DNA from: Candidatus Uhrbacteria bacterium
Lineage (GTDB): Bacteria > Patescibacteriota > Patescibacteriia > JACRJV01
Direction of reading: 5' to 3'
Length of the DNA: 64,000 nucleotides
NCBI GenBank assembly: GCA_016215325.1
Contig: JACRJV010000007.1
Coordinates: 3,728-67,727, forward strand
The position numbers and the translations under genes were made by a program. This document shows, one piece after another, positions 169-17,583 of this stretch. The notes under the pieces are model-generated. The model was not told the origin of the DNA and made no database searches. It saw nothing but the letters and a program-made list of their open reading frames with translations. Within the stretch, counting starts at the first letter, position 1; the number at the start of each line of letters is the position of its first letter.

Positions 169-2616
169 CTAGGGTGTTACGGGGGGTTCTGGCAGAGGAA
201 TTTTTTCTTTGAGCGTACTGGATCCCGTGGTTCCCCGTCCCCCTTCTGTTGCGAGCTTGGTCACTTCCTCGATTTTCTTCATGAGCTGGGGGTTATTGGC
301 ATTATTCTTGAGGATCTCGTTGAGCTCGCTCAACTCATCGTCATACCGCTTCTGATCTTCGTAGAGCTGGGCCAAATACCACCGCGCATTGGCGTAATCG
401 CTTTTGGCCGCGATCACCGCATTCCATACTTTTTCGGCAAGGTCTTTCTGATTATTCTTGTAATAGAGGGCGCCGAGTTGGATGTGCAGCGGCAAATCTC
501 CCGGTCGCGTTCGCGAAAGCCCTTCCACGCGCTTGATGGCTTCGGAGAGTTTCCCGCGCCGCTCTTCGATGATGGCCATCTGGAAGTGCGCGCTCGCAAA
601 GCCCTCGTCCAGCTGCAATGCTTTCTTCAGGAGATCCTCGGCATCAATCAACGCATCGCTTATTTTCTTCTGGTTAGCCTTCTCTCCAGCCGCCCCTTCA
701 CGGTCCGCGCGCGTTACATAGATTGCGGCCAAGTCGGTCACATGAGTCGGATTATTGGGTTCGAGTTCGCGCAATTTCTCTAAGGATTTGATCGCTTCGT
801 CTTCCGCGCCTTCGACAAATGGGCTTAATTGCTGATAGAGTCCCGCCAATGCTTGCCAATTTGCGGCGCTGACGAGGTTTAACCGCGTCGCCTCACGGCC
901 GGCAACAATGGTATCACGAGCGAGCAACCGCAACTGGGTCATCCGTTCTTCGGAGTCTTTTTTATTCTGGAGCGTGTCCTGGAATTTGGCCAATTGTAAC
1001 GCGCCAACGGTACGGAAATACACATCACTCCAGGGGTACAGATTAATTGCGCGAGCAATCGCCGCACGCCGATCATCCAACCCGGCCCTCTGGTCTCGCG
1101 CGGCCAAGAATGCCCAGTCTGCCGCAATGCGCCGGTACGAAGCCCAGGTTAACAGCGGCGCCGATAAAAAGACAATGCACGCAACACTTAACACGGTCAT
1201 CCGAAGCCGCGGGGAGTCGGCCAAATCCCAAGTCTTAGACGTTGCCGACGGCGCCAATGCCCATAAGAGTCCCGCTGTCAGTAACCCAAACACGAACTCC
1301 AAGAGTATGGTGGTGGGCAACAACGCCAACAGCGCCAGCCCCACGGTCCAGCCAGATCCCAGCGTTATGAGGATCAGCCATCGTCGCTCAGCCGCGTGCC
1401 GGAACACGGCCTTGAGCATCGGGACGATGATCGCAAATAACCAGAATAACAGCCCGAGTACCGTTGCAACGATCCCGAGTTGTGCGAGATGCGTCCACAG
1501 CGACGAGCGGCTCCGATCAAACAGCACGCCAAAACTTTGCCGCAGTGCTTCGGCAGTATGATATTTATTCACATCAATCGAGAACGTCGACGGCCCAGAC
1601 CCAAACACCGGTGAATCCTTGAGAGTCTCTTGCACCACTGTCCGGCTTTCGCTCCAGCTCATAATAAGGATCGGTGGCAATCTTTGGACAAGGCGCGCCG
1701 GTATCATCACAAAAAACGCGGCCACCACAATCACGGCAAACACTACCACCCACCGATGGGTTTTGGTGAGCTCCTGCGCCCGGCCGATGATAATCATGTA
1801 CAGCAGGAGTTCGCTCACGGCCACCACCACCCAAATGAGCTTGATCCCAATCACAGCAATCACGCCCATCGAGGTGACAATGGTCGCAAGCAGCAGTACG
1901 GATACAGCGCTATGCCCTGCCTTTTGGAGGTTTTTAAGCGACCCATGCTCTCCGAGGCCCAAAATAAAAAACTTAGCGCTGGCAAGGATCAACGTGATGG
2001 CCGAAAATACGGCGAGCCCCACAATGTCGCCGGCCGGGGTAAACAGCGCCGTGCGGGTTGCTTCCCAGGGCAGCACAAAGACGCCGGCAATACCCAACAG
2101 GAACAATACTGATGTCACCAACGATGACAAAAGCAGCGCGAACAACGCCCCCAACCATTGCTGTTCATTCAATTCCTGCAGCGCCACCAATCCAATCAAT
2201 GCCACGGCAATCATGGTGGCCAAACTCCCCCATTCCTGTCCGTAGTCGCCCAGGAGGCTCGTGAACGGATGGACGCTCATGACAGTGCTGGCAATCGCCG
2301 CCACAAAAAACGCTACGATCCAACCCCATCCGCGCACCGGTAGCCACTGGAACTTCTGCTCCAATACCATCCGCGCCAACCAGAGCGTTGTCACCAGCAC
2401 CACGCCGACCAGTAATAGGCTTTGTTTGGGTAATTCAAACGCGTCGCTCATGCGGCCGCCGAAGGTCAGCGGCGCAAAAAAAATAATCGCGTACAGGATC
2501 CAGCGATTGACAGCGGCGAGAATCGTGGCGGGTTGAACACGTGGCATACTGCGATAAAGAATCCAGATGTTGTATATCAGATATTCGAGACGTGCTCTCC
2601 AATATCCAATATCCAA
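169..2616 (-). CDS. O-antigen ligase (Wzy_C)-like polytopic membrane protein with C-terminal TPR repeats, 815 aa. The true start is possibly an internal Met.
   Basis: The N-terminal ~450 aa has more than 10 hydrophobic helices. It includes a loop of the form ...SLWTHLAQLGIVATVLGLLF, which resembles the Wzy_C 'aHNxyLqxlaElGiiG' region. The C-terminal ~350 aa is helical and shows TPR-like periodicity (e.g. ...ASAHFQMAIIEERRGKLSEAIKRVEGL..., ...ANARWYLAQLYEDQKRYDDELSELNEIL...). No search was run to confirm. Confidence 0.5.
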   Translation of the reverse strand: MDIGYWRARLEYLIYNIWILYRSMPRVQPATILAAVNRWILYAIIFFAPLTFGGRMSDAFELPKQSLLLVGVVLVTTLWLARMVLEQKFQWLPVRGWGWIVAFFVAAIASTVMSVHPFTSLLGDYGQEWGSLATMIAVALIGLVALQELNEQQWLGALFALLLSSLVTSVLFLLGIAGVFVLPWEATRTALFTPAGDIVGLAVFSAITLILASAKFFILGLGEHGSLKNLQKAGHSAVSVLLLATIVTSMGVIAVIGIKLIWVVVAVSELLLYMIIIGRAQELTKTHRWVVVFAVIVVAAFFVMIPARLVQRLPPILIMSWSESRTVVQETLKDSPVFGSGPSTFSIDVNKYHTAEALRQSFGVLFDRSRSSLWTHLAQLGIVATVLGLLFWLFAIIVPMLKAVFRHAAERRWLILITLGSGWTVGLALLALLPTTILLEFVFGLLTAGLLWALAPSATSKTWDLADSPRLRMTVLSVACIVFLSAPLLTWASYRRIAADWAFLAARDQRAGLDDRRAAIARAINLYPWSDVYFRTVGALQLAKFQDTLQNKKDSEERMTQLRLLARDTIVAGREATRLNLVSAANWQALAGLYQQLSPFVEGAEDEAIKSLEKLRELEPNNPTHVTDLAAIYVTRADREGAAGEKANQKKISDALIDAEDLLKKALQLDEGFASAHFQMAIIEERRGKLSEAIKRVEGLSRTRPGDLPLHIQLGALYYKNNQKDLAEKVWNAVIAAKSDYANARWYLAQLYEDQKRYDDELSELNEILKNNANNPQLMKKIEEVTKLATEGGRGTTGSSTLKEKIPLPEPPVTP

Positions 2617-2656: not shown

Positions 2657-2684
2657 TACCACAAAACGGTCAGTGTTACTGACC
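2657..2684 (-). terminator. Intrinsic-terminator-like hairpin just downstream of the giant gene
   Basis: The minus strand reads GGTCAGT-AAC-ACTGACC followed by GTTTTGTGG. The 7-bp stem sits at 2668..2684. The giant ORF stops at 2691. Confidence 0.45.
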
Positions 2685-2690: not shown

Positions 2691-5600
2691 TTACTCCTGC
2701 GCAACTGTCTCGGGTTGTGCCGGTGCTGGGGCAGACTCGGTCGCCGCGGCCTGTTCTACTGCCGCAGGCTCTGACTGGGCAGGTGCGGCTTCTGCGACAG
2801 GTTCGGGAGCGGGTGTCGGCTCTGGGGCTGGTGTTGGAGTAGGTTCAGAAGACGCTGTTGGCGTCTCTGTTATCGGGGGTTCCGGCAGCGCGGGCGTTTC
2901 GGTCACAACCGCTGGCTCTGGAGCGGGTTCGACCTCTGAAGCTTGAGAGGGGGGTTCCTCTATTTTTTTCTCAACCGGTGTTGTGGGGGGATCTTCCTCA
3001 ATTTCTTTGAGTGTAATGATCGGAGCAGGGGCCGACGCGCTCTGCTGCCGTACTTGCTGCTGCGATTGTTCCCGAATTCCCTGGATTTCCGCTCGCAAGA
3101 AGCTCAACTCTTCTTGGCTTGATCGCGTAGTCTCACCGGTTAAGCGATCGAGTCGCTGTTCAAACTGTTCCATGCGCTCGAATAATTTTTCGATCTGTGT
3201 TTGTTGGGCTTTAACGGCCGACAGTGTAAACGTGGCGAGTTTGTAGATGTCAACGCCTTTGCCGTCGATGCTCAATACTTCCAAGGGCGCTTCTTCGGCA
3301 ATGAGTCCCATCCGCAACGGCGCGGTGGCAGATTCTTCTTTATAGTGATACCGCGCGATATTCACATTGGCGAGCTTGGCCAAAATCGTCTTTTGATCCC
3401 CTTCGGTCAAATACTCAATGTCTTTCTTGGCTTCTTTTGTGGAAATATTCACAAAGCTCGTGGCGGCCACGTCGCCCATGACATGCAGCTTGTACTGGGG
3501 GTCTGTTGTGCCAATGCCGATATTGCCGTCATCGTCAAACGCCATTTGGCTTGATTCAATCCGATACTGCGGATTAAACCACACGACGATCTTGTTATCC
3601 GGTGATTGAGCGTTGTAGCTTTCGAGCGCCACGCCAACGGTCCATCCGCTGGTCTTGGCCTTCATGCCAACTCCGGCAATAGATGAAGTTGTAATCCGAT
3701 CACCGGCCGCAATGTCGCCGCCTTCGAGATTGACTTTTACCGGGATGCGCCCAGCTAGCACGATGGGTACTGGGTGTTCTTCTGTCGTGAACACCCCTTC
3801 ACCTAACACTTCTGAAAACGGATTAGTGGAAACGACACCCGTAATTGGAGCGTACACGGCTTGTGACTTTGCAACAGATGCTTTTGAACTTTGGCCGATC
3901 CGTTCTTGGACAAATTCTTGCGCCTCGCCGCTTATGGCCACAATATCGCCTGCTTCGAGCGTGCCGTCGCTCCCGTAGTACTCGGCCATGTCAGATCCGC
4001 CGGCGTTACAATCCCCAATGTTCACGAGCCCGGTTGCGGCATCGGCTCCGCTTTGGCAGACCCGCTGCGTATACGTTGTTGTATCATCAAGGTTGATTTG
4101 GAACGCAGTCAAACTCCCGGTCAAAATCGCGGTTCCTCCACTATCCTTAATGTTCACCGTGCCGTCGGAAGCATTATCAATCGTCTCGGAGTTTTGGAAT
4201 TTAATATCGTTAGTGATCCCAGCCCCACCGGTATTCGCAATCAATAACGCGTCGGTCACAACGGTAGAAGCGGGACCGGTTACGGCTGTATCAGCATTAT
4301 TCAAAACGAGCAATGCGCTCACGAAATTATCCGTAGTATTCGTTGTTGGCTGATTTTCAATCAACATGGCATATTCCACATTGTTGCTGACACTCGGCTG
4401 GTTGGTGAATTTGAAATAGTTTCCCACAATGGAGTTGGCTCCGCTTACTGCAGTGCTCGTTTGATTATTGTTGACGGTGAATACGCTCCCAGTCCACGAA
4501 TTACCGCTCTCTCCAGTGTCATTGCCAAAGGTCGCGGTCACAAGAGCAAGATTTAAATTACCGTTAGCGGCAAGCGACATTGGAGTGTTGTATCCATTAC
4601 CAAACTGATTATAGTCAAACCGAAGTTGGCTACCGCCCCCCTCTTGATTGGCGCTAAAGACCCTCCAATCCTGCGAATACGATGCGAGCCCTGGGCCTGG
4701 GTTCACCCACGAACTTCCATGAAACGTTAACGCGGGAGAATACTGCGCATCGTTTGTCGCCGTCGAAGCGGTGGTATTTTGCAACGTGATCCCCTGCACA
4801 GGTGTCCTATCCACCGAAGTGTCATTGGCGTTATCCGAAAACGCCACATTAACGCTTAAATTGGTATTATTGCCGATCTGGGTCACCATCCGTGTTTCAC
4901 CAGAAACCGTGATGCTGTCTCCAACCACCAACTCGGTAAGGAATGCAGTACCAACCCCAGTTACGTCCGTAGACGCTGTTGGGTCAATGCTTCCGGTTAA
5001 CACCGAAGTGGTAGAGCCGGTAGTAAAGACCCCTGAACCAACGACATCCAGTGCCGCCGTTGGCGTGGTGTCACCAATGCCCACATAGCCTCCGGCAAAA
5101 ATGGCTGTATAATTCGTGTCTGCCCCGGTGGGGGATGCCACATATAATCCGGTCTTCGTGGAGGTCCCGGTGGTGGTACTGGTTCCATCGGCAATATATA
5201 GGCCATAACTATTGATCGTTCCATTGGTTGTGAGGGTGGCGGTATTGGCAATATATTCGCCATACACATTCACCGTACTGCCGGTTGAGGAGGCAGTGGA
5301 TGATGGCGCAAGGTACGAGCCATACACGTTGGCTGTGCCGCCCGAGGATGCTCCAGACGTGGCTGGTTGAGAGCGAAGGCCATACACAGTACGCGTTCCT
5401 GTTGATATTGCGCCGGTGACACTCGTGGCAATATCCAAGGCCGCAATCGTATCGGCTGTGGTGGAGTTAGAAGTGACAGTCTGGTACAGACCATAGCCAT
5501 ACTTAGCGGCATTTCCGGTAAGCGCCAGAGAGCCGTAGTAGCCATAATCGGTGTTGGTATTGGCCGTTGAATCAGTCGCGGTGATGTTGAGGCCGTACCC

Positions 5601-8600
5601 CGTGACACCGCTGCCGGAGAAATCCGGCGCGCCATAGATGAGCGCCGCGCCAGAGCCGATGTCAGACGCCAAATTTACAACATGACTCGTAACACCGGTG
5701 GTGGTGGAGCCGGTAACACGAATGGCGGTGTCCCAGCCGCTGCCAATCTTCACCGCAGTTTCGGTGGCCGCGTTCGCGGTGATATCCCCAATATTCAACG
5801 CATTATATGTCCCCCCTTGAGGACCCGCAGGAACTAAATTAATTAAATTAATGGTGTCCCCGGCAGAACCATCAGAAGAAACGCTCGCGACCCGCAGTCC
5901 ATCCGCATTGATGGTGCCGTCCGTATACGCCGCGTTCCCTCCGCCGACCGAAATGTTCACCCCTCGCGAATTCACGGTGACACCGGCGACATCCGCTGAC
6001 ATTTGATTGGTAACATCGATGCCCGTCAATGTTTTAGTCCCTGAACCAGAGGCTGGTGTCCCAGGGATTGTTAATGACAACCCGGTAATCGCCGATGTGT
6101 TATCAAGAGTAAGATTTGAACTTAAATCCATTGCCATCCCCGTTATTGCTCCGCTTTGCGTGGTCGCAGAACCAAAGTCCGCGTTGATGAGCGAGCCAGT
6201 CGTCCACTCGGTTTCCAAGGCAAAATCGAGGAATGTTCCAGTGGTCGTGGGGCTAATGGTCAGCGCCCCGCTCATCCCCAGCGTCGTCACATCACTCACG
6301 GCCCCTGCGTTAATATCAATCCCATTAATGCTTTCATCCGTGGCTACCGTGAGTTGCCCAGAGGAGTTGATATAATATGAAGATGAGTGGAACTGTATGT
6401 CTCCTTTGGTGGAGTTAGAGGTGGAGATCAACAGAAGGTCATCGCCACTGCCAGAACCACCGACAAGATCTCCTTGGGTGCCATCAGCAAACAGAGCATA
6501 GTTGGTGGTGGCGCCAGAGGCGGAGAAGTAGCCACCGTAATTAGATGAGGTGGTTCCGGTGTTAGCAACGGTGGAATAGACTCCATACGCCGTGTGCGTG
6601 GCATTGCTGTTGGTACCAGAGCGAGTAAGTTTCAAAAGTGCGGTAGAGCCAGACCCACCGCCCACGGTAGAGGTTGATTCGATAAATACTCCGGTGCCCG
6701 TGGTCAGCCCGTCGGCAGAAATCTGAAGCGCGTCAGCCGTTGAAACAGAGTCAGCCGTAATCTGAGCCGCATCCGTGGTGTTGCCGGTGTAGGTTTGGAC
6801 GAAGGTGCCGGTGCCGGAGGCTAGGGCAAAATTCGCATTGGCATCAATAGTCGTACCGCCGAGCGTAACAGTGCTGTCAACGTTCAAAGTAGATGTGGTG
6901 GAAATAGCACCATCGGCAGTGATGGCTCCGATGCCGCTCATGTCCCCGGTGGTGTTGATGTCCCAGTCAGAGGAATCGATCGCAACAGTATCGCCGCTAT
7001 CGCCGAGATCAACTTGCCCATTGGCATCCAACGCTCCGGCAAGAGTGAGTCCCCCAGTGGAAGTAAAATCCGTACCAGCGTTTCCGATGTTTACGAGAAT
7101 GTTGGCACTAAGATCAATGCCGGTATCCCAACCAGAACCGATACTCAAAGCGGTTTCGGTGCCATTGCCAGCAGTGATATTGCCAATATTAATTCCATAC
7201 AATGTTCCCGCGCCCACTCCAGCAGCCGCGAGGTTGATAATATTTTGGGTCCCGGCGGTGGTGATCGTGCCATTGACAAGACGGATGCCGTTGGCCGTCA
7301 CAGTGTCGCCGGTATTCTGGGTAATGTTGGGCATGGTGATGTTGGCGCCTCGCCAGTTGATGATCGCGGCATTGGCTCCATCGGTAACAGACAGAGCGCC
7401 GGCAGCCGAGATATTGTAGCCGGTGTATGTGGTAGTGACGGCGGAGTCTGCGGCAGTCAAGGCATTCATCACAATGTCTGTGCCGGTGATGTCGAGATCT
7501 GCTGCTCCGGTTAAGTTCGTATCAAAATCAAATTTAAGGCCAGTGATATCCCCTCCAGATTGCGTGGTGACATTGGCAAAATCAGCATTAATAAGGGTGC
7601 CTTGGGTCCATTCAGTTTCGAGTTGATAATCCGTAAATGTGCCGGTGGTGGTTGGAGCGATGGTGAGCGCCCCGCTCATGCCCAACGTCGTCACATCACT
7701 CACGGCCCCAGAGCTCACATCGATGCCGTTGAGGGTTTCATCGGTCGCAAACGTCGCTTGTCCCGAAGAGTTGATAATGTAGCTGGACGAATGGAATTGA
7801 ATGTCGCCCTTGGTCGCATTGGAAGTGGAGACCAAGAGGAGATCATCGCCGGAACCTGTGCCGCCGACCAGATCGCCCTCGGTTCCGTTGGCGACGAGCG
7901 CATAATTCACGATCAATCCAGAGGCAGTCGAAGCCGCGAAGTACCCAGCAATGTTGGTACCGCTGGTGGCGTTGACATTAGTAACCGAGGAATAGATTCC
8001 ATAGGCTGTGTGAGCGCTATTGGCGTTAGTGCCAGAACGGGTCAGTGTGACGAGCGCGGTGTCATCTGATCCCGTACCTACTGTGGAAGTTGAAATAATA
8101 TTCAAAGCATTGCCTGTGGTTAAGCCACTGGCCGTGATCTGGAGCGCATCGGCAGTGGTCACAGAGCTCGCAGTAATCTGCGCCGCATCGGTGGTATCGC
8201 CAGTAAAAGTCTGCACAAACGTGCCAGTGCCAGAGGCAAGGGCAAAATTATTGTTCGCCGCTACAGTTGTGGCACCGGTCAAGGAGACGGGTCCGGTAAG
8301 GGTGATCGTTCCGCTGCTGCCGCCAATGCTAAACCGGCTTGAGCTGGTGTTTACATCGTAAATTTCAAACGCGTTGGCAATTGTGATCGATGAACCTGCG
8401 CGCCAATCGCTCGGGTAGCCGGTTTTAAATTCTATCGTCGCCGGATTTCCAATATCCGTCTTATCTAAGATAAGCATGTTATAGGAAGAGCTACGATCTC
8501 CACCCGAGTCTTTGATAACGAGGTTTGTGGTTGGCGTTGTCGTCCCAATACCAACGTATCCGGAACCTGGGCTTAATACCAGATCATCGCCAGAACTCGT

Positions 8601-11600
8601 AACAATTTCAACTGCGGTGTTGGTATCTTCGTCCAGATCAAATGTTAATGTATTCGTGCCATCGGAAAAAGAAAGCTCGGTGTCTGTAGAATTGACGATT
8701 GTCTCGCCATTTCCCAGAGTGAGCGTACCGTCCAATCGTGTGGTCCCCGCATCCACCCACAAGGCATAGGCATTGGTGATGGTGGCAGGCCCAGCGCCCG
8801 CGCCCGTAGGCGCATTGGCAATATAGAGTGATGCCGCATTGGTTACCGTAAGAGTAGAGGCAGCGGAGAGTGTCGATTGAGCAATATTCAGAAGATTAAA
8901 CCCCGTGGCAGTCGTGATATTTGTAGAGCCAGTGATGGTGGCGGTTGCCGCAGAAAGATCGATGCCGTTCCAAGTGGCGCTGGCGCCTGAGGCAATAGTT
9001 TCGTTACCAGAAATCGCAGGATTTGTGATGGTGGCAGTATTGATCGCAGGACTAGTTAATGTTTTGTTTGTAAGAGTATCAGTAGTCGCTCGACCGACAT
9101 AGGTGTCCGTTCCTTGGAAGGTGATTGTTGTGGAATCCGTACCAGCGAGAGTCAAAGAGTTACTCGCCGTCAGCGTCTTACCATCGGCGATCGTGAGTGT
9201 GCCAGTGGATGCTGTTACTGTAAGTCCGTTGATTGTCTTATTCGTCAGCGCCTCTGCACCCGCAAGAGTGGCGAGCGTACCGGTCGTTGGAAGAGTAACG
9301 TTTGTTGCTCCGGTTGTTGTGAGTGTAAGAGAGTTCGCCCCAGAGGTAATGAGTGCTCCGGCAGTGGTGAGGTTCCCAGCCAAGTTAATCGTGCGAGCCG
9401 CATCGTTGGTGGTGATTGTCAGTATTCGGCCAGCTGTAAGATTCTCAGTGTTGGCAAGAGTGAGATCAAACGCGCCGGTGCCGGTGGAACGAATGCCTAA
9501 GGACGTGAGTGCGTCAGCAGTGCCGCCGTTGATATCTGGACTGGTCAGCGTTTTGTTCGTCAATGTATCGGTCGTGGCACGGCCAACTAGCGTATCAGTT
9601 CCGGTGGGAATCGTGATGGTGCCGCTATTAGAGATGGAGGCGATCACTGGGGTTGTGAGGGTTTTGTTGGTGAGCGTATCGGTTGTCGCGCGGCCGACAT
9701 ACGTGTCTGTTCCCTGAAATGTGATGGTTGTCGCATCTGTTCCTGCCAATGTGAGTGAATTGCTCGCGGTTAAGGTCTTCCCATCCGCGATCGTCAACGT
9801 GGCCGAAGTGGTCGGCGCGGTAATGGCGACCTTATTAATGGATGTTGCAGAAGCAACGCCTAAAGTCGGAGTAACGAGGGTCGGAGACGTCGAAAAGACG
9901 AGATTCGTGCTCGTGGTTCCTGTTGTTCCGCCCGCAGAGGAAAGATAGTTCAACTGTGTTCCCGTCGACGTAACCGATGTTGCTCCAAGTGTAAACGGTG
10001 TGGGAATGGTGACCGTGCCGGTGAAGGTGGGGCTTTCTAAAAATGCAAATGTTTTCCGTGCTGCGCCGGTCGTGATGGTGCCGTAATACGCATCGGTCAA
10101 GAATTCCACGGCCCCGGCTTCGGCAGTGGTCATCAGTGACCCAGAGTTAAACTTGAGCGGCGCTGTGGAAGCGCTGGTGGTGCCAGCTTTGAGGTGAAGG
10201 ACAGCAGTGGGGGTTGTGACCCCGATGCCGACATTTCCATCAAAACGCACAGCCCCATCATCCACCCATAACGCATAGGCATTGGTGATGGTGGCTGGCC
10301 CAGCGCCTCCGCCCGTGGGGGCATTGGCAATATATGCTGTTGCGGCATTCGTCACAGTTAATGCTGAAGCTGCCGAGAGTGTTGGTTGGGCAATATTCAA
10401 CAGATTAAACCCAGCGGCTGTCGTGATGTTGGTGGAGCCGGTGATGGTGGCTGTGGCCGCAGAAAGATCGATCCCGTTCCAGGTGGCACTCGCACCAGAG
10501 GCGATCGTTTCGTTGCCAGAGATCGCGGGGTTGGTAATGGTAGCGGTATTAATCGCAGGACTGGTCAATGTCTTGTTCGTGAGCGTATCCGTGGTGGCTC
10601 GACCGACAAGCGTATCTGTTCCGGTGGGGATCGTGATAGTACCGGAGTTGGAAATGGAAGCGATCACGGGAGTTGTGAGTGTTTTGTTGGTGAGCGTATC
10701 CGTCGTCGCCCGGCCAACATACGTGTCTGTTCCTTGAAAGGTGATTGTTGTCGCATCTGTTCCTGCCAATGTGAGTGAATTACTCGCAGTCAACGTTTTC
10801 CCATCGGCGATCGTGAGGGTGGCCGATGTTGCCGGCGCGGTAATCGCCACCTTGTTGATTGAGGTTGCGGATGCAACGCCTAGTACGGGGGTAACAAGCG
10901 TCGGGGTTGTGGCAAATACCAGCGCTCCAGAACCGGTTTCATCGGTGAGTTGTCCTGAAATGCCCGAAGATGCGGTAGTAGCGGTCACGGCACTCGTGCC
11001 ATTGCCGATTAAGATGCCTGAGAGCGTCCCCGCTCCAGTACCTCCTTGAGCAACCGCTAATGCAGTGGTTAATCCCGAAATCGACGTGATGTCCGAATTT
11101 GCTCCCGATGCGGCGGCGCCTAAATTTGCTCGCGCATTCGCGGCGGTTGTTGCGCCAGTGCCGCCGTTAGCCACTGCAATCGTCGTCCCATTCCAGGTCC
11201 CGGCCGTGATCGTCCCAACCGTCGCAATGTCGGTACCCACCAGTTTTGAAGCCGCAATCGAGCCCGTGAGCATGCCATTCGTGACCGATCCGGTATCACC
11301 AGTGGTGACAATAGTACCACTGACATTGGGAATGCTCAGCGTTCGGGTTGCCCCCGCGCTTACACCGGAGATTTGGAATGCGAGTTGCTTGGTTGTGTCG
11401 CTATCGTCTTGGATAACGAAGTTTGTATCTTTCAACGTCGCTGCGTTCGTATTATCAATCGTCTTGTTGGTGAATGTTTCACTACCGGCAAGGGTCGCAA
11501 TAGTGCCGGTGGTCGGCAAGGTGAGGGTCGTCGCCCCCGTTGTTGCGAGCGTTAGGGCATTCGCTCCGGATGTCGTGAATGCCCCCGCAAGCGTGAGATT

Positions 11601-12377
11601 GCCATCGAGATTAATCGTGGTGCCCGCTCCTTGAATTGTTTTGTCCGCGCCCGTCACCGTCAATGTCCGCGATGTGGTGCCCCCGGCAACAGTGAACCCG
11701 TCCGCGGCCGAGGCAAGTGTCAATCCATTGACGGCGCCGCTGGTCACAGTGCCGGTGCCAGAACTTCCCACCGTGAGCGTGCCGGCCACGGTTGCATCAC
11801 CTTCGGCATCCACTTTGAATCGGCTCGTGCCATTCACCGCAATGCCAAAGAGCGTGTAGTTGGCGGTGACGCTCGCGGGGTTTATGTAGACAACACCTTG
11901 ACTCACGCCCGTTCCCGACGGGGTGCCAGTCAACGTAAAATTTCCGGAAGAGCTGGTCACGGGGACAAATGCAGAAAGGCCGCCAATGGCCGATGTTTCT
12001 AATCCATCGAGCCGATCGGTGTTGACGGCGTACCCCGATGCCCCAATCCGGCGTCGTGGCGAGAGCGTTTCGCCATTGACTTGGACCTCGAGATACAATG
12101 TGTCGTTATCGAACAACGTCACCGGGAATGCGTTTTGTGATCCGCCACCGGCAGATGTATCACCTAAGAGCACGCTAAACTCGCCACTGGCCACAGCCAC
12201 ACTCATGGTCGACGACGGACTCGTGCACCCATTCGCTCCCGTGCCTTTCGCAGACCATTGGCAGGTGCCGGACGTTGCGGCGTCGTAAATCACAAATGCC
12301 ATGTTGTAGTTGGCATCGCTTACCGCCGAACCGCTGGAAGTCTTGAGGACCCCCTGGTAACTCATGACATGGGGCAC
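2691..12377 (-). CDS. Giant repeat-rich, tail-fibre-like surface protein, 3228 aa as called from a GTG start. The C-terminus carries an intramolecular-chaperone (peptidase S74-like) domain plus a Pro/Glu/Thr/Ala-rich tail.
   Basis: This is a single uninterrupted 9.7-kb ORF. It is extremely rich in Gly, Thr, Ser, Ala and Asn. Modules of the form ...TDTLTNKTLTTPVIASISNSGTITIPTGTDTLVGRATTDTLTNKTLTSP... are reiterated. Some copies are identical at the DNA level, for example around 9.1-9.7 kb versus 10.4-10.8 kb. Two ~250-aa paralogous blocks begin ANNNFALASGTGTFVQTFTGDTTDAAQITA... and ANANFALASGTGTFVQTYTGNTTDAAQITA... Near the N-terminus there is a motif NGGTGATTAANARANLGAA like those seen in phage tail fibres. 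The C-terminal region reads ...DDDGNIGIGTTDPQYKLHVMGDVAATSFVNISTKEAKKDIEYLTEGDQKTILAKLANVNIARYHYKEE..., which matches the architecture of the 'chaperone of endosialidase' / peptidase S74 domain. A coiled coil and a PAPEPTPAPEP low-complexity tail follow. No signal peptide appears after the called start (see the mini-ORF at 12408..12488). Confidence 0.85.
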   Translation of the reverse strand: MPHVMSYQGVLKTSSGSAVSDANYNMAFVIYDAATSGTCQWSAKGTGANGCTSPSSTMSVAVASGEFSVLLGDTSAGGGSQNAFPVTLFDNDTLYLEVQVNGETLSPRRRIGASGYAVNTDRLDGLETSAIGGLSAFVPVTSSSGNFTLTGTPSGTGVSQGVVYINPASVTANYTLFGIAVNGTSRFKVDAEGDATVAGTLTVGSSGTGTVTSGAVNGLTLASAADGFTVAGGTTSRTLTVTGADKTIQGAGTTINLDGNLTLAGAFTTSGANALTLATTGATTLTLPTTGTIATLAGSETFTNKTIDNTNAATLKDTNFVIQDDSDTTKQLAFQISGVSAGATRTLSIPNVSGTIVTTGDTGSVTNGMLTGSIAASKLVGTDIATVGTITAGTWNGTTIAVANGGTGATTAANARANLGAAASGANSDITSISGLTTALAVAQGGTGAGTLSGILIGNGTSAVTATTASSGISGQLTDETGSGALVFATTPTLVTPVLGVASATSINKVAITAPATSATLTIADGKTLTASNSLTLAGTDATTITFQGTDTYVGRATTDTLTNKTLTTPVIASISNSGTITIPTGTDTLVGRATTDTLTNKTLTSPAINTATITNPAISGNETIASGASATWNGIDLSAATATITGSTNITTAAGFNLLNIAQPTLSAASALTVTNAATAYIANAPTGGGAGPATITNAYALWVDDGAVRFDGNVGIGVTTPTAVLHLKAGTTSASTAPLKFNSGSLMTTAEAGAVEFLTDAYYGTITTGAARKTFAFLESPTFTGTVTIPTPFTLGATSVTSTGTQLNYLSSAGGTTGTTSTNLVFSTSPTLVTPTLGVASATSINKVAITAPTTSATLTIADGKTLTASNSLTLAGTDATTITFQGTDTYVGRATTDTLTNKTLTTPVIASISNSGTITIPTGTDTLVGRATTDTLTNKTLTSPDINGGTADALTSLGIRSTGTGAFDLTLANTENLTAGRILTITTNDAARTINLAGNLTTAGALITSGANSLTLTTTGATNVTLPTTGTLATLAGAEALTNKTINGLTVTASTGTLTIADGKTLTASNSLTLAGTDSTTITFQGTDTYVGRATTDTLTNKTLTSPAINTATITNPAISGNETIASGASATWNGIDLSAATATITGSTNITTATGFNLLNIAQSTLSAASTLTVTNAASLYIANAPTGAGAGPATITNAYALWVDAGTTRLDGTLTLGNGETIVNSTDTELSFSDGTNTLTFDLDEDTNTAVEIVTSSGDDLVLSPGSGYVGIGTTTPTTNLVIKDSGGDRSSSYNMLILDKTDIGNPATIEFKTGYPSDWRAGSSITIANAFEIYDVNTSSSRFSIGGSSGTITLTGPVSLTGATTVAANNNFALASGTGTFVQTFTGDTTDAAQITASSVTTADALQITASGLTTGNALNIISTSTVGTGSDDTALVTLTRSGTNANSAHTAYGIYSSVTNVNATSGTNIAGYFAASTASGLIVNYALVANGTEGDLVGGTGSGDDLLLVSTSNATKGDIQFHSSSYIINSSGQATFATDETLNGIDVSSGAVSDVTTLGMSGALTIAPTTTGTFTDYQLETEWTQGTLINADFANVTTQSGGDITGLKFDFDTNLTGAADLDITGTDIVMNALTAADSAVTTTYTGYNISAAGALSVTDGANAAIINWRGANITMPNITQNTGDTVTANGIRLVNGTITTAGTQNIINLAAAGVGAGTLYGINIGNITAGNGTETALSIGSGWDTGIDLSANILVNIGNAGTDFTSTGGLTLAGALDANGQVDLGDSGDTVAIDSSDWDINTTGDMSGIGAITADGAISTTSTLNVDSTVTLGGTTIDANANFALASGTGTFVQTYTGNTTDAAQITADSVSTADALQISADGLTTGTGVFIESTSTVGGGSGSTALLKLTRSGTNSNATHTAYGVYSTVANTGTTSSNYGGYFSASGATTNYALFADGTQGDLVGGSGSGDDLLLISTSNSTKGDIQFHSSSYYINSSGQLTVATDESINGIDINAGAVSDVTTLGMSGALTISPTTTGTFLDFALETEWTTGSLINADFGSATTQSGAITGMAMDLSSNLTLDNTSAITGLSLTIPGTPASGSGTKTLTGIDVTNQMSADVAGVTVNSRGVNISVGGGNAAYTDGTINADGLRVASVSSDGSAGDTINLINLVPAGPQGGTYNALNIGDITANAATETAVKIGSGWDTAIRVTGSTTTGVTSHVVNLASDIGSGAALIYGAPDFSGSGVTGYGLNITATDSTANTNTDYGYYGSLALTGNAAKYGYGLYQTVTSNSTTADTIAALDIATSVTGAISTGTRTVYGLRSQPATSGASSGGTANVYGSYLAPSSTASSTGSTVNVYGEYIANTATLTTNGTINSYGLYIADGTSTTTGTSTKTGLYVASPTGADTNYTAIFAGGYVGIGDTTPTAALDVVGSGVFTTGSTTSVLTGSIDPTASTDVTGVGTAFLTELVVGDSITVSGETRMVTQIGNNTNLSVNVAFSDNANDTSVDRTPVQGITLQNTTASTATNDAQYSPALTFHGSSWVNPGPGLASYSQDWRVFSANQEGGGSQLRFDYNQFGNGYNTPMSLAANGNLNLALVTATFGNDTGESGNSWTGSVFTVNNNQTSTAVSGANSIVGNYFKFTNQPSVSNNVEYAMLIENQPTTNTTDNFVSALLVLNNADTAVTGPASTVVTDALLIANTGGAGITNDIKFQNSETIDNASDGTVNIKDSGGTAILTGSLTAFQINLDDTTTYTQRVCQSGADAATGLVNIGDCNAGGSDMAEYYGSDGTLEAGDIVAISGEAQEFVQERIGQSSKASVAKSQAVYAPITGVVSTNPFSEVLGEGVFTTEEHPVPIVLAGRIPVKVNLEGGDIAAGDRITTSSIAGVGMKAKTSGWTVGVALESYNAQSPDNKIVVWFNPQYRIESSQMAFDDDGNIGIGTTDPQYKLHVMGDVAATSFVNISTKEAKKDIEYLTEGDQKTILAKLANVNIARYHYKEESATAPLRMGLIAEEAPLEVLSIDGKGVDIYKLATFTLSAVKAQQTQIEKLFERMEQFEQRLDRLTGETTRSSQEELSFLRAEIQGIREQSQQQVRQQSASAPAPIITLKEIEEDPPTTPVEKKIEEPPSQASEVEPAPEPAVVTETPALPEPPITETPTASSEPTPTPAPEPTPAPEPVAEAAPAQSEPAAVEQAAATESAPAPAQPETVAQE

Positions 12378-12407: not shown

Positions 12408-12488
12408 CTAAAACGCGCCAGCAACCGCTGGGATAACGAGAACCAGGAATAGGAATTTTACCAATTGTGGATGTTTGACCGACGACAT
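12408..12488 (-). other. Orphan signal-peptide mini-ORF (26 aa, MSSVKHPQLVKFLFLVLVIPAVAGAF). It is in the same frame as the giant gene and separated from it by one TAG.
   Basis: ATG at 12488. The N-region has Lys/His, followed by a hydrophobic core and an AGA/AxA-like site. The stop is TAG at 12408..12410. Ten sense codons (YNYRTQAAVG) then lead directly into the GTG at 12377 of the giant ORF. The distance of 111 nt equals 37 codons, so the two are in the same frame. Confidence 0.5.
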
Positions 12489-12541
12489 ATGCTATTGCGT
12501 TTTTGTTTCGGTTTTCTTCGTCTCTTTGAACGGTGCTGGAT

Positions 12542-13150
12542 TTACTGCGCCACTTCCCGCAGTCCACTGATGAACAATTCTGTGTTGACCGTAATCGCAT
12601 AAACAGCCAGATCAATCTGGTCACGAGCTGAACGCCATTCTTCTTGCAAATCTTGCCGCGTTGACGCCACATCCTCGACGGACGATTCCGCCACAGGCAA
12701 TGCTTCGCTCACGGCAACCAACTCTTCAACGATATTCTGCTTGACCGCAGCCGCCGCCTGCCCAGGCTGCCAACTGGTCTTTGCCCAGGCGCGCATCACT
12801 TCAACTTGTTTGCTCGTCTTCTCAAATGTTTGTCGCACCCACTGTTGCACTGTTTGCCAGAACCCTATAACGCCAGACTTGATGCTGCTCCCTGCTTGTC
12901 CGATCGCAACACCGACCGCTTGGACCCTCACAACAATGTGCTGTTGCGTTCGCAACAAGGTATGTTGGATTCTTTGAATGCGCGATGGGCGCTCCGGCTC
13001 ACTGACCTCCTGCGCAGCAGAAGTCTCCGATGGTTGTCCTGTTTTACGTTCAGCGGATTTCTCATTTTCGGATTGATCGGTCTTCTCCGGTGGTATCACG
13101 GGCTTGATTTCTTGCTCAACACGAATACTGCCCGATGATTCAGTTCTCAC
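12542..13150 (-). CDS. Hypothetical protein (202 aa) with a charged N-terminus and no signal peptide
   Basis: The ORF shows a 4-nt ATGA overlap with the upstream gene, which suggests translational coupling. I recognised no motif. Confidence 0.45.
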   Translation of the reverse strand: MRTESSGSIRVEQEIKPVIPPEKTDQSENEKSAERKTGQPSETSAAQEVSEPERPSRIQRIQHTLLRTQQHIVVRVQAVGVAIGQAGSSIKSGVIGFWQTVQQWVRQTFEKTSKQVEVMRAWAKTSWQPGQAAAAVKQNIVEELVAVSEALPVAESSVEDVASTRQDLQEEWRSARDQIDLAVYAITVNTELFISGLREVAQ

Positions 13151-13749
13151 CGCAAGAGGTTTCGGCTCGATCGCAATTTCCGCCCGGGGATGCGCGCCCC
13201 AAAAAGTTGTTTCACGGGTTTTGTGACCGCTTCAATGGCACGTTCAATCACCCCAGAGGTCTCGGGCTGTTGTTGCGCATCCGGGGGAACCGAAGTCCCG
13301 GATGATGCGGGTATCGTTGTAGGCGCGGCTTGTTCTTGCTGCGGTAGGAGGGGCGCGTCCGTTGGTTCTTGTTGCGGTGCGCCGCCGGACGGCGGTGGAG
13401 TCGTCGTGGTTGGTTGTTGTTGTGGGGCGACTCCCGTATCAGCCGGGGGCGCTACTGCCTGCGTCCCTCGCGCTGTGCGCGTCGTGGTGCTGCCCGAACC
13501 TGTTGATGTTGCCAGTGGAGCAGCGGTCTTGAAATTCGTTGAACTCCCCCCCTGTGCTGGGGCAACGCCCCCTCGGGAACCCGATGTTGTGCTGCCAGAA
13601 GCAGAAGACCCGGATGGGCCAAACGAAAAAGAGTCGATGAGAATAAAGCTTGTGGAAGTAGACGTGTCTGCGCGTACGTCAGAAGCTGCTATCCACAAGC
13701 CTGATACCCAAACGACTCCAAGGATAATTATGAAGAATGGGGCCTTCAT
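13147..13749 (-). CDS. Secreted low-complexity Ser/Thr/Pro/Gln-rich protein (200 aa)
   Basis: The N-terminus MKAPFFIIILGVVWVSGLWIAASDVRA looks like a signal peptide. The rest is S/T/G/P/Q-rich low complexity. It is the first gene downstream of a strong promoter. Confidence 0.5.
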   Translation of the reverse strand: MKAPFFIIILGVVWVSGLWIAASDVRADTSTSTSFILIDSFSFGPSGSSASGSTTSGSRGGVAPAQGGSSTNFKTAAPLATSTGSGSTTTRTARGTQAVAPPADTGVAPQQQPTTTTPPPSGGAPQQEPTDAPLLPQQEQAAPTTIPASSGTSVPPDAQQQPETSGVIERAIEAVTKPVKQLFGARIPGRKLRSSRNLLR

Positions 13750-13822
13750 AAAGCTCTTTTTTGTATTTATTTTTCGATTTTTTGCACTTTCCTCTACTGC
13801 AACCGCCGATTTTTATGTATTA

Positions 13823-13851
13823 ATTATAGCATTTTTTAGGTAAACTTTCAA
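13823..13851 (-). promoter_or_regulatory. Sigma70-type promoter driving the secreted-protein / giant-protein gene string
   Basis: The minus strand reads TTGAAA-17 nt-TATAAT, i.e. a perfect -10 with 17-bp spacing, about 70 nt upstream of the ATG at 13749. Confidence 0.55.
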
Positions 13852-13899
13852 TGTTCGGATGTCCACAGGTCGAAATGGATTTTTTCGCTTTTATTGAGG

Positions 13900-14196
13900 T
13901 TAATTTTCTGGGTACACCTTCTTCCCGTCTTTATTATACAAGAATATGGCCAGCGTGGGGCACGATTCTGCCGAAGCTTTGAGCGTTTCGTCGTCCACCG
14001 TGAGCCATTCGGGCTTAATGATCGCTTTGGCGTCGTTGTCCAACTCATACACATCGGGAGCAACGGCTATGCAACTGGCTGCCCCAATACAGAGCTCTCG
14101 ATCGACAACAACACGGGTAAATTGCCGACCGCTGGATGTCGTAATAGTCTCTTTGTTGAGAGTAATATTATTAGAATCAGAGCGAGAGGCATCCAT
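13900..14196 (-). CDS. Ferredoxin, single-cluster CxxAxxC...CP type
   Basis: The sequence ...RELCIGAASCIAVAPDVYELDNDAKAII...ESCPTLAI matches Pyrococcus/Bacillus-type mono-cluster ferredoxins, which have three Cys and a CP motif. Confidence 0.55.
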   Translation of the reverse strand: MDASRSDSNNITLNKETITTSSGRQFTRVVVDRELCIGAASCIAVAPDVYELDNDAKAIIKPEWLTVDDETLKASAESCPTLAIFLYNKDGKKVYPEN

Positions 14197-14273: not shown

Positions 14274-14861
14274 CTAGAAGGGCAGCGTCAAATTTAGGCT
14301 TACTTGAGCAATTTTTGGCATTTCAGGCAAAAGAATGGCAAACTCTCGGGTCGAACCAACGTCTGGGTACCGGAGCTTTTTGAATTTTTGGGCGTATTCG
14401 TAGATATCCCGAGTGATCCGCACATCATCCAGGCAGTATTGTTTAATTTTCTCGATCTCCCCTTGCTTGTACCATTCCACCGCTTGCAGGCCATGGCTAC
14501 TCTTTGCCGTTCCTAATGTTCCCTTCGCAAGATCATCTAATTTGAGGCGGAATCCTAACCGCTCTTTCACCACTTCCAATAGGTCGAGTTGCGGGAGTTT
14601 CGATAAATCGCCTCTATAGTAATTATTTAGCACGGGAATGTCAAACGCTTTGCTGTTATACCCAATCACTCGATCGGCGTGTTCAAACATAGGCCACATC
14701 TTGGGGAGCTCTTCCTCTGTAAATGTTGAATACCGATCATATTCATATTCGTAAACCCCCACAACGGATACTTTGAGCCCCCGATGGCCTAATGCGCCGA
14801 CGTCATTGAATGTGTTTTGAGTTTCGATATCAAAGACAATCTCTTTACTCATAGGATTCAT
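14274..14861 (-). CDS. DnaQ-like (DEDD) 3'-5' exonuclease. The ORF is open to 15026, but the likely start is MNPMSKEIVFDIETQ.
   Basis: An Exo I-like FDIETQ motif and an Exo II-like IGYNSKAFDIPVL motif are present. The upstream 55 codons of the ORF look non-protein-like. Confidence 0.55.
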   Translation of the reverse strand: MNPMSKEIVFDIETQNTFNDVGALGHRGLKVSVVGVYEYEYDRYSTFTEEELPKMWPMFEHADRVIGYNSKAFDIPVLNNYYRGDLSKLPQLDLLEVVKERLGFRLKLDDLAKGTLGTAKSSHGLQAVEWYKQGEIEKIKQYCLDDVRITRDIYEYAQKFKKLRYPDVGSTREFAILLPEMPKIAQVSLNLTLPF

Positions 14862-15293
14862 CGGCACTACGAAGTAAGAATGTATACGAATATACGAATC
14901 GTCTCCCCAACGATCGATCGTCAACGCTGCGGTTCGTATAATTCGTAATGCATCGTACTTCGAAGGGGTATGCAATACGCTGCAGTATATCAAACTCTCA
15001 CACAAACAAACAGCCCCGACTGACATCGGGGCTGTTTGTGGAAAAGTGCTGGGTGAAACGGAACCGATCGCGATTATTCGCGGACAGCGACCCAGACGAC
15101 TTCACGGCGCATCATCCAAAGTTGGATGAAGTGGTGGAGCATAGCTAGAGTGTTAATGAACATTTGTTTTTGTTTTCCTGGGGCTTATGGTCGCGCCCAG
15201 GAGCGACCTTTCAAAAGCTGGATGTCCCCCCTCCGGGACATGAATTTACTCTATCAGTATAGCACATTTTTTGGGGGTTGTCGATGGGGTTCG

Positions 15294-15368
15294 TGGTGCG
15301 CGTGCCTGGGATCGAACCAGGGACCTTCTCATTATCAGTGAGACGCTCCACCACTGAGCTACACGCGC
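15294..15368 (-). tRNA. tRNA-Ile (anticodon GAT), with CCA encoded
   Basis: The sequence is GCGCGTG-TA-GCTC-AGTGGTG-GAGC-G-TCTCA-CTGATAA-TGAGA-AGGTC-CCTGG-TTCGATC-CCAGG-CACGCGC-A-CCA. The arms form a clean cloverleaf. Confidence 0.9.
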
Positions 15369-16051
15369 GCAATCGCTTCTTGATAACAATCAGTCATTGC
15401 TTTCATTGCCATCATTATTTTTCTTTTCAGTCCAGTGCTTGGGACATATACCGCACAGGTGCCGTGACCATGACTGTATGAGTAAGAAAAACTCGATGGA
15501 CGCAACGTTCTGATTTGGTGTTTATAAAACTGACTCTCATCAATTCCTGCCACATTCTCCCAAAACTTAACCTCTTTGGAAATGTCCATCGATTCATAAA
15601 GGTGGAGCTGCAAACGAATCTGCCGTCGACTGATACCATAGAACTTCCCTATCCAAGCGATAAAGAATCGGATTACACCGGGGTCGGTATTAGCAAGGTG
15701 AACTCGAAAAGGATTCCGTTTTTCGCCTTCGCCTAAATATAATACAAGCCCTGCGACAAAGCAAGACTCTGTTGAGAGGTGTTTGAATTGATCAACATAT
15801 TCCAAATACACGTTCTGGTCAGCCTGTCTCTTCTTTTCACGCATGGCATTTCTATATCGCTCTCGGCTGGCCTCACCGCTGAGCCAATTTTTCCTTCGTA
15901 ACTCTAGTATTTTTTCTTCGGTAAGCGGGAATTCTCTCAACCAGTAGCTCAGGGTACTTTTTGGTACGCTCAATTTTTTCATTATTGCAGTGTAACTCAT
16001 CTCTTCTTCTACTCGCAGTCGCACTGCTTGATTGCGAAGTTCAGCGTTCAT
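15359..16051 (-). CDS. HTH plus LAGLIDADG-type homing-endonuclease-like protein (230 aa), encoded in the 16S-tRNA-Ile spacer
   Basis: There is an N-terminal HTH (...SYTAIMKKLSVPKSTLSYWLREF...) followed by FVAGLVLYLGEGEKR, a LAGLIDADG-like motif. The stop codon overlaps the first 10 nt of tRNA-Ile. Confidence 0.5.
   Translation of the reverse strand: MNAELRNQAVRLRVEEEMSYTAIMKKLSVPKSTLSYWLREFPLTEEKILELRRKNWLSGEASRERYRNAMREKKRQADQNVYLEYVDQFKHLSTESCFVAGLVLYLGEGEKRNPFRVHLANTDPGVIRFFIAWIGKFYGISRRQIRLQLHLYESMDISKEVKFWENVAGIDESQFYKHQIRTLRPSSFSYSYSHGHGTCAVYVPSTGLKRKIMMAMKAMTDCYQEAIARV

Positions 16052-17550: not shown

Positions 17551-17583
<33 letters not shown>

Follow-up and report, generated by a model that had tools for sequence, protein, structure and literature searches.

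A giant gene for a putative trimeric, phage-tail-fibre-like surface fibre in the chromosome of a Candidatus Uhrbacteria bacterium

The giant gene and its chromosomal setting

We analysed a giant gene in a 64-kb stretch of a Candidatus Uhrbacteria contig (JACRJV010000007.1). Below, the window means this whole stretch of 64,000 nucleotides (nt). A first-pass annotation, made from the letters alone, had reported a single open reading frame (ORF) occupying 15% of the window and built from Gly/Thr/Ser/Asn-rich modules. Both statements agree with our computations: the ORF takes up 15.1% of the window, and its product contains 17.8% Thr, 12.2% Ala, 11.5% Gly, 9.5% Ser and 6.4% Asn, with four Cys in all. 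Judging from its sequence, we consider it probable that the gene encodes a giant, secreted and trimeric surface fibre that resembles phage tail fibres and belongs to the MAT (mosaic adhesive trimer) type described in Bdellovibrio. The features that carry this interpretation are the following (aa, amino acids):

2691-12377, minus strand: giant ORF, 3228 codons and a TAA stop, without interruption; product of 323 kDa, pI 4.1
12000-12377, minus strand: N-terminal domain (N-domain), aa 1-126, conserved beta-sandwich, 'VP..I.YQG.L...NAD.LDG'
11013-11183, minus strand: phage tail-fibre module, aa 399-455, ...GGTGATTAANARANLGAAASGANSDITSISGLTTALAVAQGGTGA...
10197-10238, minus strand: capping-loop motif 1, GNVGIGVTTPTAVL, aa 714-727
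8520-8561, minus strand: capping-loop motif 2, GYVGIGTTTPTTNL, aa 1273-1286
5049-5090, minus strand: capping-loop motif 3, GYVGIGDTTPTAAL, aa 2430-2443
3561-3992, minus strand: autochaperone-like domain of the phi29 gp12 type (Peptidase G2-like, beta-tulip), aa 2796-2939, at GGS|DMAEYY
3486-3527, minus strand: capping-loop motif 4, GNIGIGTTDPQYKL, aa 2951-2964, immediately N-terminal to S74
3135-3443, minus strand: S74 or intramolecular chaperone auto-processing (ICA) domain, aa 2979-3081
3441-3443, minus strand: codon of Ser2979, predicted nucleophile and cleavage site, conserved in 47/52 homologs
3426-3428, minus strand: codon of Lys2984, predicted general base with S-x4-K spacing, conserved in 46/47 homologs
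3036-3113, minus strand: additional helix, probably a coiled coil (packing inferred), aa 3089-3114, from an AlphaFold2 (AF2) model
2694-3035, minus strand: acidic low-complexity tail rich in Pro, Ala, Glu and Thr, aa 3115-3228, pI 4.05

The gene sits in the cellular chromosome of a member of Candidatus Uhrbacteria (Patescibacteria, also termed Candidate Phyla Radiation or CPR), and not in a prophage. The window encodes a 16S rRNA, four tRNAs, trmD, nusA and proS, together with a membrane pyrophosphatase (H+-PPase), a class II ribonucleotide reductase and a DUF5667 protein. Four of its proteins are identical to NCBI entries named 'Candidatus Uhrbacteria bacterium' on an 84-kb contig (MBI5134827, MBI5134828, MBI5134845 and MBI5134850), and Logan contigs from the run SRR12113407 are identical to segments of the window. 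We found no match to the giant protein in NCBIfam, nor any match to aa 1251-2739 in a sequence search of the PDB.

Predicted autochaperone domains at the C-terminus

The first-pass annotation had assigned the region near the C-terminus, where 'GIGTTDPQYKLHVMGDV...SFVNISTKEAKKDIEYL' is present, to the S74 family of self-cleaving chaperones, an assignment that was to be given up if no profile of this family matched. We ran the search. The Pfam profile Peptidase_S74 (PF13884) matches aa 2981-3030 with 25.7 bits in the whole protein, and with 29.2 bits when only the 391-aa C-terminal fragment is used, both above the gathering cutoff of 22 bits. The same profile matches 37 of 52 homologs (best E 5e-25), and PHROG 17524 ('tail protein') spans aa 2968-3084. 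The AF2 monomer model of aa 2740-3130 has a mean pLDDT (the confidence score of the model) of 79, reaching ~90 in the S74 region. Its S74 fold matches best the ICA of MyRF (PDB 7dc3), and also those of endoNF (3gw6), T5 pb1 (4uw8) and GA-1. With tblastn, we found 31-38% identity to the C-termini of tail-fibre proteins of Bacillus and Geobacillus phages. The Ser/Lys dyad sits in 'STKEAK', and the residue that follows Ser (position +1) is Thr in the subfamily of the window protein and Leu in the homolog of the Bacillus phage Stills. The profile score, the dyad, the fold and the identity to phage proteins all uphold the S74 assignment.

The relatives of this region are mostly from the same group of bacteria. 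The named matches in a search with the C-terminal module (499 aa from the C-terminus) are almost all proteins of metagenome-assembled genomes (MAGs) of Patescibacteria, labelled at NCBI 'tail fiber domain-containing' or 'immunoglobulin-like domain-containing'. Two short homologs, P0026 and P0046 (508 and 403 aa), lack the fibre and have a Hint/intein-splicing domain (PF14890) N-terminal to S74. As judged from these profile matches, they have two predicted self-processing domains in one protein.

A second domain of the autochaperone type, overlooked in the first-pass annotation, lies directly upstream of S74. In the AF2 monomer model, it is predicted to adopt the fold of the C-terminal fragment of phi29 gp12. 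At its start, the window protein has the junction S2795|D2796-M-A-E2799, which a profile of the homologs aligns with S691|D692-F-A-E695 of gp12. We take D692 and E695 to be the catalytic residues of gp12. The PDB chain 3gqh begins exactly at DFAEYF, and mature gp12* consists of residues 1-691 (PMC6542822). The D, A and E of the junction are invariant in 11 homologs; in a wider alignment they are found in 23/30, 19/27 and 17/26 of the sequences, respectively. Three of the 52 homologs match the profile Peptidase_G2 (PF11962, best E 9e-6) and one matches Phage_cement_2.

By sequence and by predicted fold, the giant protein has a tandem of autochaperone modules from two different phage-type families, first 'GGS|DMAEYY...' and then '...VNI|STKEAK'. 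The tandem is also present in at least 11 further CPR homologs, and S74 stands by itself in at least 13 more whose upstream sequence is long enough to tell. Our search of the literature found no paper that names Peptidase_G2 together with Peptidase_S74.

The S74 domain of the giant protein is internal. Ser2979 is followed by the remainder of a C-terminal stretch of 250 residues (counted from this Ser), 148 of them past the end of the S74 match, and the domain is thus not at the extreme C-terminus. The AF2 model has helices at aa 3044-3081 and 3089-3114, both C-terminal to the Pfam match, and the last 114 aa form the tail (24.6% Pro, 19.3% Ala and 18.4% Glu). The first-pass annotation was right about the existence of this extension, but not in calling it unusual. 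It is unusual when compared with phages and Bdellovibrio, whereas it is the norm among ~45 CPR homologs of the C-terminal module, nearly all of which have 100-450 residues past the Ser. The usual extension in these homologs comprises a helix, a 'GITLYDxxTGxPYC...G.C' module, a PF16403 Ig-like domain (25/52) and a low-complexity tail. The window protein has the shortest extension, with the helix and the tail but without the module and the Ig-like domain. The post-S74 module, '...LTVGSxxKPSGITLYDxxTGxPYCxKxxNGxxxxxxGxC', occurs in many CPR homologs and is not itself matched by any Pfam profile at E <= 0.001.

The extensions bear on another reading of the protein, namely that it would be a structural envelope or spacer fibre (associated with an S-layer or keeping cells apart) without a specific host receptor, or that its polarity would be reversed as in MyRF, with the coiled coil and the Pro-rich tail past S74 serving as wall anchor and cleavage setting the fibre free. 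It would be odd for a disposable chaperone to be followed by the 'GITLYD..PYC' module and PF16403 Ig-like domains that CPR homologs keep past S74. The best fold match, the ICA of MyRF, is itself internal and frees the N-terminal part of that protein from its anchor. Tails rich in Pro, Glu and Thr also resemble the wall-spanning segments of Gram-positive surface proteins. However, the giant protein has neither a transmembrane segment nor a C-terminal sorting signal, and its LPxTG-like strings are internal (aa 287 and 1029). Moreover, the family is conserved at the N-domain end and variable in its C-terminal parts, a pattern that in MATs has been read as N-terminal retention and C-terminal display (PMC10769870). 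We regard a purely structural or reversed fibre as improbable.

The N-terminus: signal peptide, in-frame stop and conserved domain

Two features lie just upstream of the giant ORF:

12408-12488, minus strand: 26-codon mini-ORF, MSSVKHPQLVKFLFLVLVIPAVAGAF followed by TAG, in frame with the giant ORF
12408-12410, minus strand: in-frame TAG between signal peptide and mature protein, ten sense codons before GTG 12377

The frame is open up to 12377, as the first-pass annotation had it, but this is probably not the original start of the gene. GTG 12377 is merely the first start codon past the in-frame TAG. Behind this stop, ATG 12488 lies 111 nt upstream of GTG 12377 and in frame with it, and opens the sequence MSSVKHPQLVKFLFLVLVIPAVAGAF. 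This is a canonical Sec-type signal peptide: its n-region is basic, its core is hydrophobic, and an A-G-A site is present. The context of the two codons also differs. Nearly all genes of the window start with ATG behind A/T-rich leaders and without a Shine-Dalgarno motif; ATG 12488 conforms to this pattern and GTG 12377 does not. Since the genes of this organism lack Shine-Dalgarno motifs, an analysis of starts based on them was uninformative.

Both the in-frame stop and the conserved N-domain that follows it had escaped the first-pass annotation. In the AF2 model, residues 1-112 form a beta-sandwich (pLDDT ~85-95), for which we found no close fold in the PDB. In 12 of 13 aligned homologs, the signal peptide is fused directly to the N-domain within one ORF, and the thirteenth begins at the N-domain. 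Two CPR loci that we fetched separately likewise encode the signal peptide and the N-domain in one continuous ORF. The N-domain is widespread: its profile retrieved 73,939 cluster representatives out of 1.84 billion, 36,935 of them at E <= 1e-10. In most of the 150 best-scoring representatives, which are up to 3501 aa long, the domain starts at residue 20-60. Searching the indexed database with this profile returned short fragments only, none bearing a Bdellovibrio name, and scans of genome and metagenome contigs gave distant relatives only (<= ~40% identity in the N-domain). Two Patescibacteria contigs (JAHJHG010000001.1 and Ga0180008_1000024) each carry two N-domain fibre genes, ~10 kb apart. 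By analogy with Bdellovibrio, such pairs hint at families of paralogs.

Our conclusion is that the ancestral gene started at ATG 12488 and that, in the assembly, a stop lies where signal peptide and mature protein meet. Several explanations fit the sequenced form of the gene: a null allele that arose very recently by a nonsense mutation, a sequencing or consensus error, a minority allele, or dependence on readthrough. Reassignment of TAG was ruled out, because this codon ends 18 of the 48 ORFs of the window. The Logan contig of SRR12113407 that is identical to this region covers 12497-13933 and ends 9 nt before the ATG of the signal peptide; the position of its end may reflect a branch in the assembly graph or a drop in coverage near the start of the fibre gene.

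The TAG might also be real and fixed, in which case export would be lost and the gene would be a freshly inactivated, decaying pseudogene. We hold this to be unlikely, although it is the most serious of the alternatives that we considered. The stop falls exactly between signal peptide and N-domain, there is no suppressor tRNA among the four tRNAs found in the window, and the product of the ORF, taken either from GTG 12377 or from ATG 12365 (M5), has no record in the gene-call collection. Yet, the 9,687 nt downstream are free of stops and frameshifts, and an intact frame of 9.7 kb makes long-standing pseudogenisation unlikely. Any inactivation must be very recent, because the internal repeats described below show dN/dS ~0.05. 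A single-base consensus error in the MAG, or a minority allele, explains the TAG equally well, and none of the Logan contigs examined provides an independent assembly across the site.

Fibre modules and internal repeats

Between the N-domain and the C-terminal modules, we found elements known from fibres of phages and of predatory bacteria. A motif that the first-pass annotation had associated with tail-fibre proteins, GGTGATTAANARANLG, lies at aa 405-420, within the tail-fibre module. The association was well founded, as this module matches two solved tail fibres, PDB 7z47 ('putative tail fiber', E 8.7e-6) and 8vbx gp47. It also has hundreds of metagenomic matches in a search with the N-terminal 497 aa, one of which is named 'uncultured Caudovirales phage'. 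The four capping-loop motifs closely resemble those listed for MATs and MyRF, e.g., NVGIGATSPSAKLQ and AVGIGTTNPSGILH (PMC10769870, Suppl. Fig. 18). In agreement, a phmmer search against the PDB matched chains of the Bdellovibrio proteins Bd3182, Bd2133 and Bd2439 through the motif 'GN(I/V)GIGTTxPxxKLHV' (E 6e-4).

Part of the fibre region is internally repeated:

10539-10922, minus strand: repeat copy 1a, aa 486-613
9519-9902, minus strand: repeat copy 1b, aa 826-953; compared with 1a, 94.5% identical in aa and 79.9% in nt
10221-10577, minus strand: repeat copy 2a, aa 601-719
8712-9068, minus strand: repeat copy 2b, aa 1104-1222; compared with 2a, 88% identical in aa and 78% in nt
7017-8393, minus strand: tandem paralogous block A, aa 1329-1787
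5613-6998, minus strand: tandem paralogous block B, aa 1794-2255; compared with block A, 56% identical in aa and 57% in nt

The first-pass annotation had pointed to a reiterated 'ITAPATSATLTIADGKTL...TNKTLT' unit, and we retrieved it at aa 486-613 and 826-953, with a third and weaker copy near aa 1049-1120 in a self-comparison of the protein. It had also described the copies as nearly identical in DNA and as a sign of recent or ongoing recombinational expansion. We reject both claims. In the best pair, protein identity is 94.5% but DNA identity 79.9%, with a synonymous divergence (dS) of 1.12, and 49% of the identical residues of 1a and 1b are encoded by different codons. With the Nei-Gojobori method, the repeat copies have dS of 1.12-1.15, i.e., synonymous sites are near saturation, non-synonymous divergence (dN) of 0.05-0.08 and dN/dS of 0.05-0.07. 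The longest nucleotide run that copies have in common is 35 nt, and Tandem Repeats Finder found no tandem DNA array. Hence, given their divergence in DNA, a dS near saturation and a low dN/dS, the repeats are old duplications under strong purifying selection on the protein and not products of recent recombination. The same annotation had mentioned two paralogous blocks of ~250 aa; the blocks exist, but they are ~460 aa each and stand in tandem.

Repeats of this sort raise the question of whether their architecture, or the ORF itself, is an artefact of assembly. The sequence does come from a MAG, and the Logan contigs of the same run are fragmentary. However, the copies differ at ~20% of their nucleotides and have at most 35 identical bases in a row, so that short reads can be assigned to one copy only, and collapse or inflation in a short-read assembly would be difficult. 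There is no tandem array at the DNA level, the reading frame is intact over all junctions, and proteins of 2,700-3,500 aa with the same N-domain occur elsewhere. We find an artefact of this kind very hard to credit.

Neighbouring genes

The giant gene is the third and last of three genes in the same orientation. The features around it are:

13823-13851, minus strand: strong promoter-like site ahead of the three-gene unit, TTGAAA-17-TATAAT, TG-extended, 11/12 (consensus match only)
13147-13749, minus strand: upstream gene 1, 200 aa, signal peptide and a low-complexity body rich in Ser, Thr, Pro and Gln
12542-13150, minus strand: upstream gene 2, 202 aa, acidic and helical, with a 4-nt overlap with gene 1
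2668-2684, minus strand: terminator-like hairpin, 7 nt past the stop codon of the giant gene (consensus match only)
169-2616, minus strand: downstream gene for a polytopic membrane protein of 815 aa that has TPR repeats at its C-terminus

The end of upstream gene 2 is separated from ATG 12488 by 53 nt. Family searches with the proteins of the two upstream genes (200 and 202 aa) gave no match, and the 200-aa protein has no record in the gene-call collection. It is possible that these genes encode accessory or anchor components of the fibre. As a speculation, the 815-aa TPR membrane protein might modify or assemble it. We considered an identity of the O-antigen-ligase or Wzy_C type for the latter protein and dropped it for lack of Pfam support.

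The tail-fibre module, S74, the gp12-like domain and the match to PHROG 17524 ('tail protein') all have phage homologs, as would be expected if the gene belonged to an integrated prophage, a tailocin or a contractile injection system and its product were a tail fibre, not a protein of the cell surface. The surroundings of the gene speak clearly against this. Scans of the neighbours with Pfam and PHROG found no capsid, portal, terminase, sheath, tube or baseplate gene within 10 kb, and the genes that are there encode the TPR membrane protein, small secreted proteins, rRNA and tRNA. The N-terminus consists of a signal peptide and an N-domain of cellular type, scans of IMG/VR with the C-terminal module found no close relative, and the GC content of the giant gene is similar to that of its flanks. 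We give such a phage-derived particle almost no credence. The housekeeping genes of the window and the absence of phage structural genes from the flanks agree with the cellular, non-phage setting that the first-pass annotation had proposed.

Further away, a 475-aa protein (20747-22174, plus strand) has four fn3 or purple-acid-phosphatase-N-like repeats and is another probable surface protein. The only PHROG tail matches among the neighbours ('major tail protein') are of the Ig/fn3 type and fall in this protein, 8 kb away.

The 16S rRNA gene (minus strand) looks interrupted. The Rfam match spans 17225-18708 and the universal 3' end, recognised by CCGCCCGTCAC...GTCGTAACAAGG...GGATCACCTCCTTTCT, lies at ~16512-16385. 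The insertion of ~720 nt contains an Rfam group-II-D1D4-1 match (16817-16900, 57.5 bits) and a 131-aa ORF (16512-16907), and it looks like a CPR-style rRNA insertion. After the 16S, on the same strand, we found an HTH/transposase-like ORF (15359-16051), a tRNA-Ile(GAT) (15294-15368) and an RNase-H-fold 3'-5' exonuclease (14274-15026). The rRNA genes are seemingly unlinked, since neither tRNA-Ala nor 23S adjoins the 16S.

Proposed mechanism and its significance

The reading that we favour, an exported MAT-type fibre, can be put as a sequence of steps. The ancestral protein would start with the Sec signal peptide, followed by the beta-sandwich N-domain of ~115-126 aa, which is probably proximal to the cell. 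Then would come ~2,650 aa of fibre modules rich in Thr, Ala, Gly and Ser, partly made of old duplications and bearing the four capping loops. The gp12-type autochaperone-like domain, a short capped beta-helix, the S74/ICA domain, the extra helix and the acidic, Pro-rich and disordered tail would close the chain. If the stop is not real, the protein would be exported by Sec and the N-domain would be held at the cell surface. The C-terminal chaperone modules would then nucleate trimerisation and bring the three chains into register after export. The Ser2979-Lys2984 dyad would cut before Ser2979 and release a fragment of 27.0 kDa made of S74, helix and tail. An additional cut at S2795|D2796 is possible. 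It would remove 46.3 kDa in all, or a separate piece of 19.3 kDa if S74 cuts too. With both cuts, the mature fibre would end just past the only Cys pair of the C-terminal region, C2774 and C2790. Extrapolating roughly from the 550 A of the 922-aa Bd3182, the fibre would be ~0.2 um long. At its exposed tip, the fibre would attach to structures on the surface of the host cell that carries the episymbiont, and by analogy with known fibres a role in host attachment is plausible.

A number of points weigh against this reading. As assembled, the product would lack Sec export, because the TAG cuts off the signal peptide, and TAG is an ordinary stop in the window. The protein is likely a MAT-type fibre on sequence grounds, and homology of its N-domain to that of Bdellovibrio is assumed. 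The second autochaperone-type domain has no match to PF11962 at E <= 1 in the window protein, and the alignment of its junction with that of gp12 is marginal (E 0.0097). In the S74 dyad, the SDxxxK consensus has Asp at +1, where the window protein has Thr. Folded Ig-like domains persist past S74 in CPR relatives, which is unexplained if the chain past S2795 or I2978 is discarded. Finally, trimerisation, cleavage and host binding are all three inferred, and the structural models are of monomers. Cleavage of gp12 needs ATP, a requirement that would be hard to meet outside the cell.

A more far-reaching version of the exported fibre would be a CPR-specific branch of MATs and tail fibres in which the tandem of G2-type and S74 modules drives a two-step cascade of cleavages, and the C-terminal piece that is released has a function of its own. 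In this version, the two modules would be unrelated to each other and S74 would be internal as in MyRF; the released piece would be an Ig-like domain in relatives, and a coiled coil with an acidic, Pro-rich tail in the window protein. We put this forward as a conjecture and think it doubtful. If true, the released piece could be, e.g., a secreted factor, or a tether that spans the cell wall for a time, and the fibres would be a programmable host-recognition organelle of episymbiotic, ultra-small bacteria.

How Patescibacteria find and hold their host cells is largely unknown. The literature that we found implicates mainly type IV pili in the attachment of CPR to hosts (PMC12206443). This locus and ~50 CPR relatives suggest that fibres of the kind used by Bdellovibrio for prey recognition also occur in CPR, where they would be concrete, expressible and testable candidates for determinants of host specificity. 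The tandem of putative self-cleaving modules and the internal S74 bear on the folding and maturation of very long trimeric fibres outside phages. The stop between signal peptide and fibre also calls for caution in annotation, as the ORF that is called lacks an export signal.

Comparison with known systems

Phage tail fibres and tailspikes with S74, such as those of endoNF, T5 pb1 and phage Stills, have in common with the window protein the family, the fold and the Ser/Lys dyad. The fibre of phage Stills stops 10 codons past its S74 match, whereas the window protein runs on for 148 residues and its gene is not in a phage. In phi29 gp12 (MEROPS G2, PF11962; PDB 3gqh, 3suc and 6qz9), the corresponding domain forms the extreme C-terminus and is the sole chaperone module. 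In the window protein, the gp12-type domain is followed by a second chaperone module from another family (S74). MyRF is a known case of an internal S74, and its ICA is the structure that the S74 module of the window protein matches best. Yet, MyRF is a membrane-bound transcription factor of eukaryotes with a transmembrane helix downstream of the ICA, and the window protein has no such helix.

The closest parallel is with the MATs of Bdellovibrio (Bd3182; PDB 8ojn, 8onb and 8onc). Their layout comprises a signal peptide, a conserved, beta-rich N-domain of ~130 aa, a trimeric beta-helix fibre and a variable tip (Caulton et al. 2024, PMC10769870). According to the same study, the fibre is a long intertwined trimer with capping loops, and the N-domain has no close fold in the PDB. 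The strain HD100 has 21 MATs, 13 of which end in S74 with SDxxxK; Bd3182, of 922 aa and 550 A, cuts itself at S782 (PMC10769870). MAT fibres are found on the surface of Bdellovibrio, their C-terminal tags are surface-exposed, and one of them binds glycans of the prey (PMC10769870). MATs of 417-1915 aa were also reported from other predators, including Omnitrophica (PMC10769870). CPR are absent from the taxa in Table S3 of that paper, and we found no paper in the searchable literature that links MAT fibres with Patescibacteria.

The homologs of the window protein combine a signal peptide with a beta-rich N-domain, a layout like that of MATs, and in the window the in-frame TAG splits the two. 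Capping loops of the 'xVGIGTTxPxxxLH' type and a near-C-terminal S74 with S-x4-K are common to MATs and the window protein, and in both cases the genes are chromosomal in bacteria that live on other bacteria. The differences concern size and the C-terminal part. The window protein is 2-4x longer (3228 aa, against 760-1660 aa for the S74 MATs of HD100), it has an extra gp12-type domain before S74, its S74 is internal and followed by a helix and a Pro/Glu tail, and the +1 residue of S74 is Thr instead of the Asp of Bdellovibrio MATs. The MAT superfamily is large and already described. The giant MAT-like fibre of CPR, with its internal S74 and the gp12-type module in tandem with it, is a variant of this described kind.

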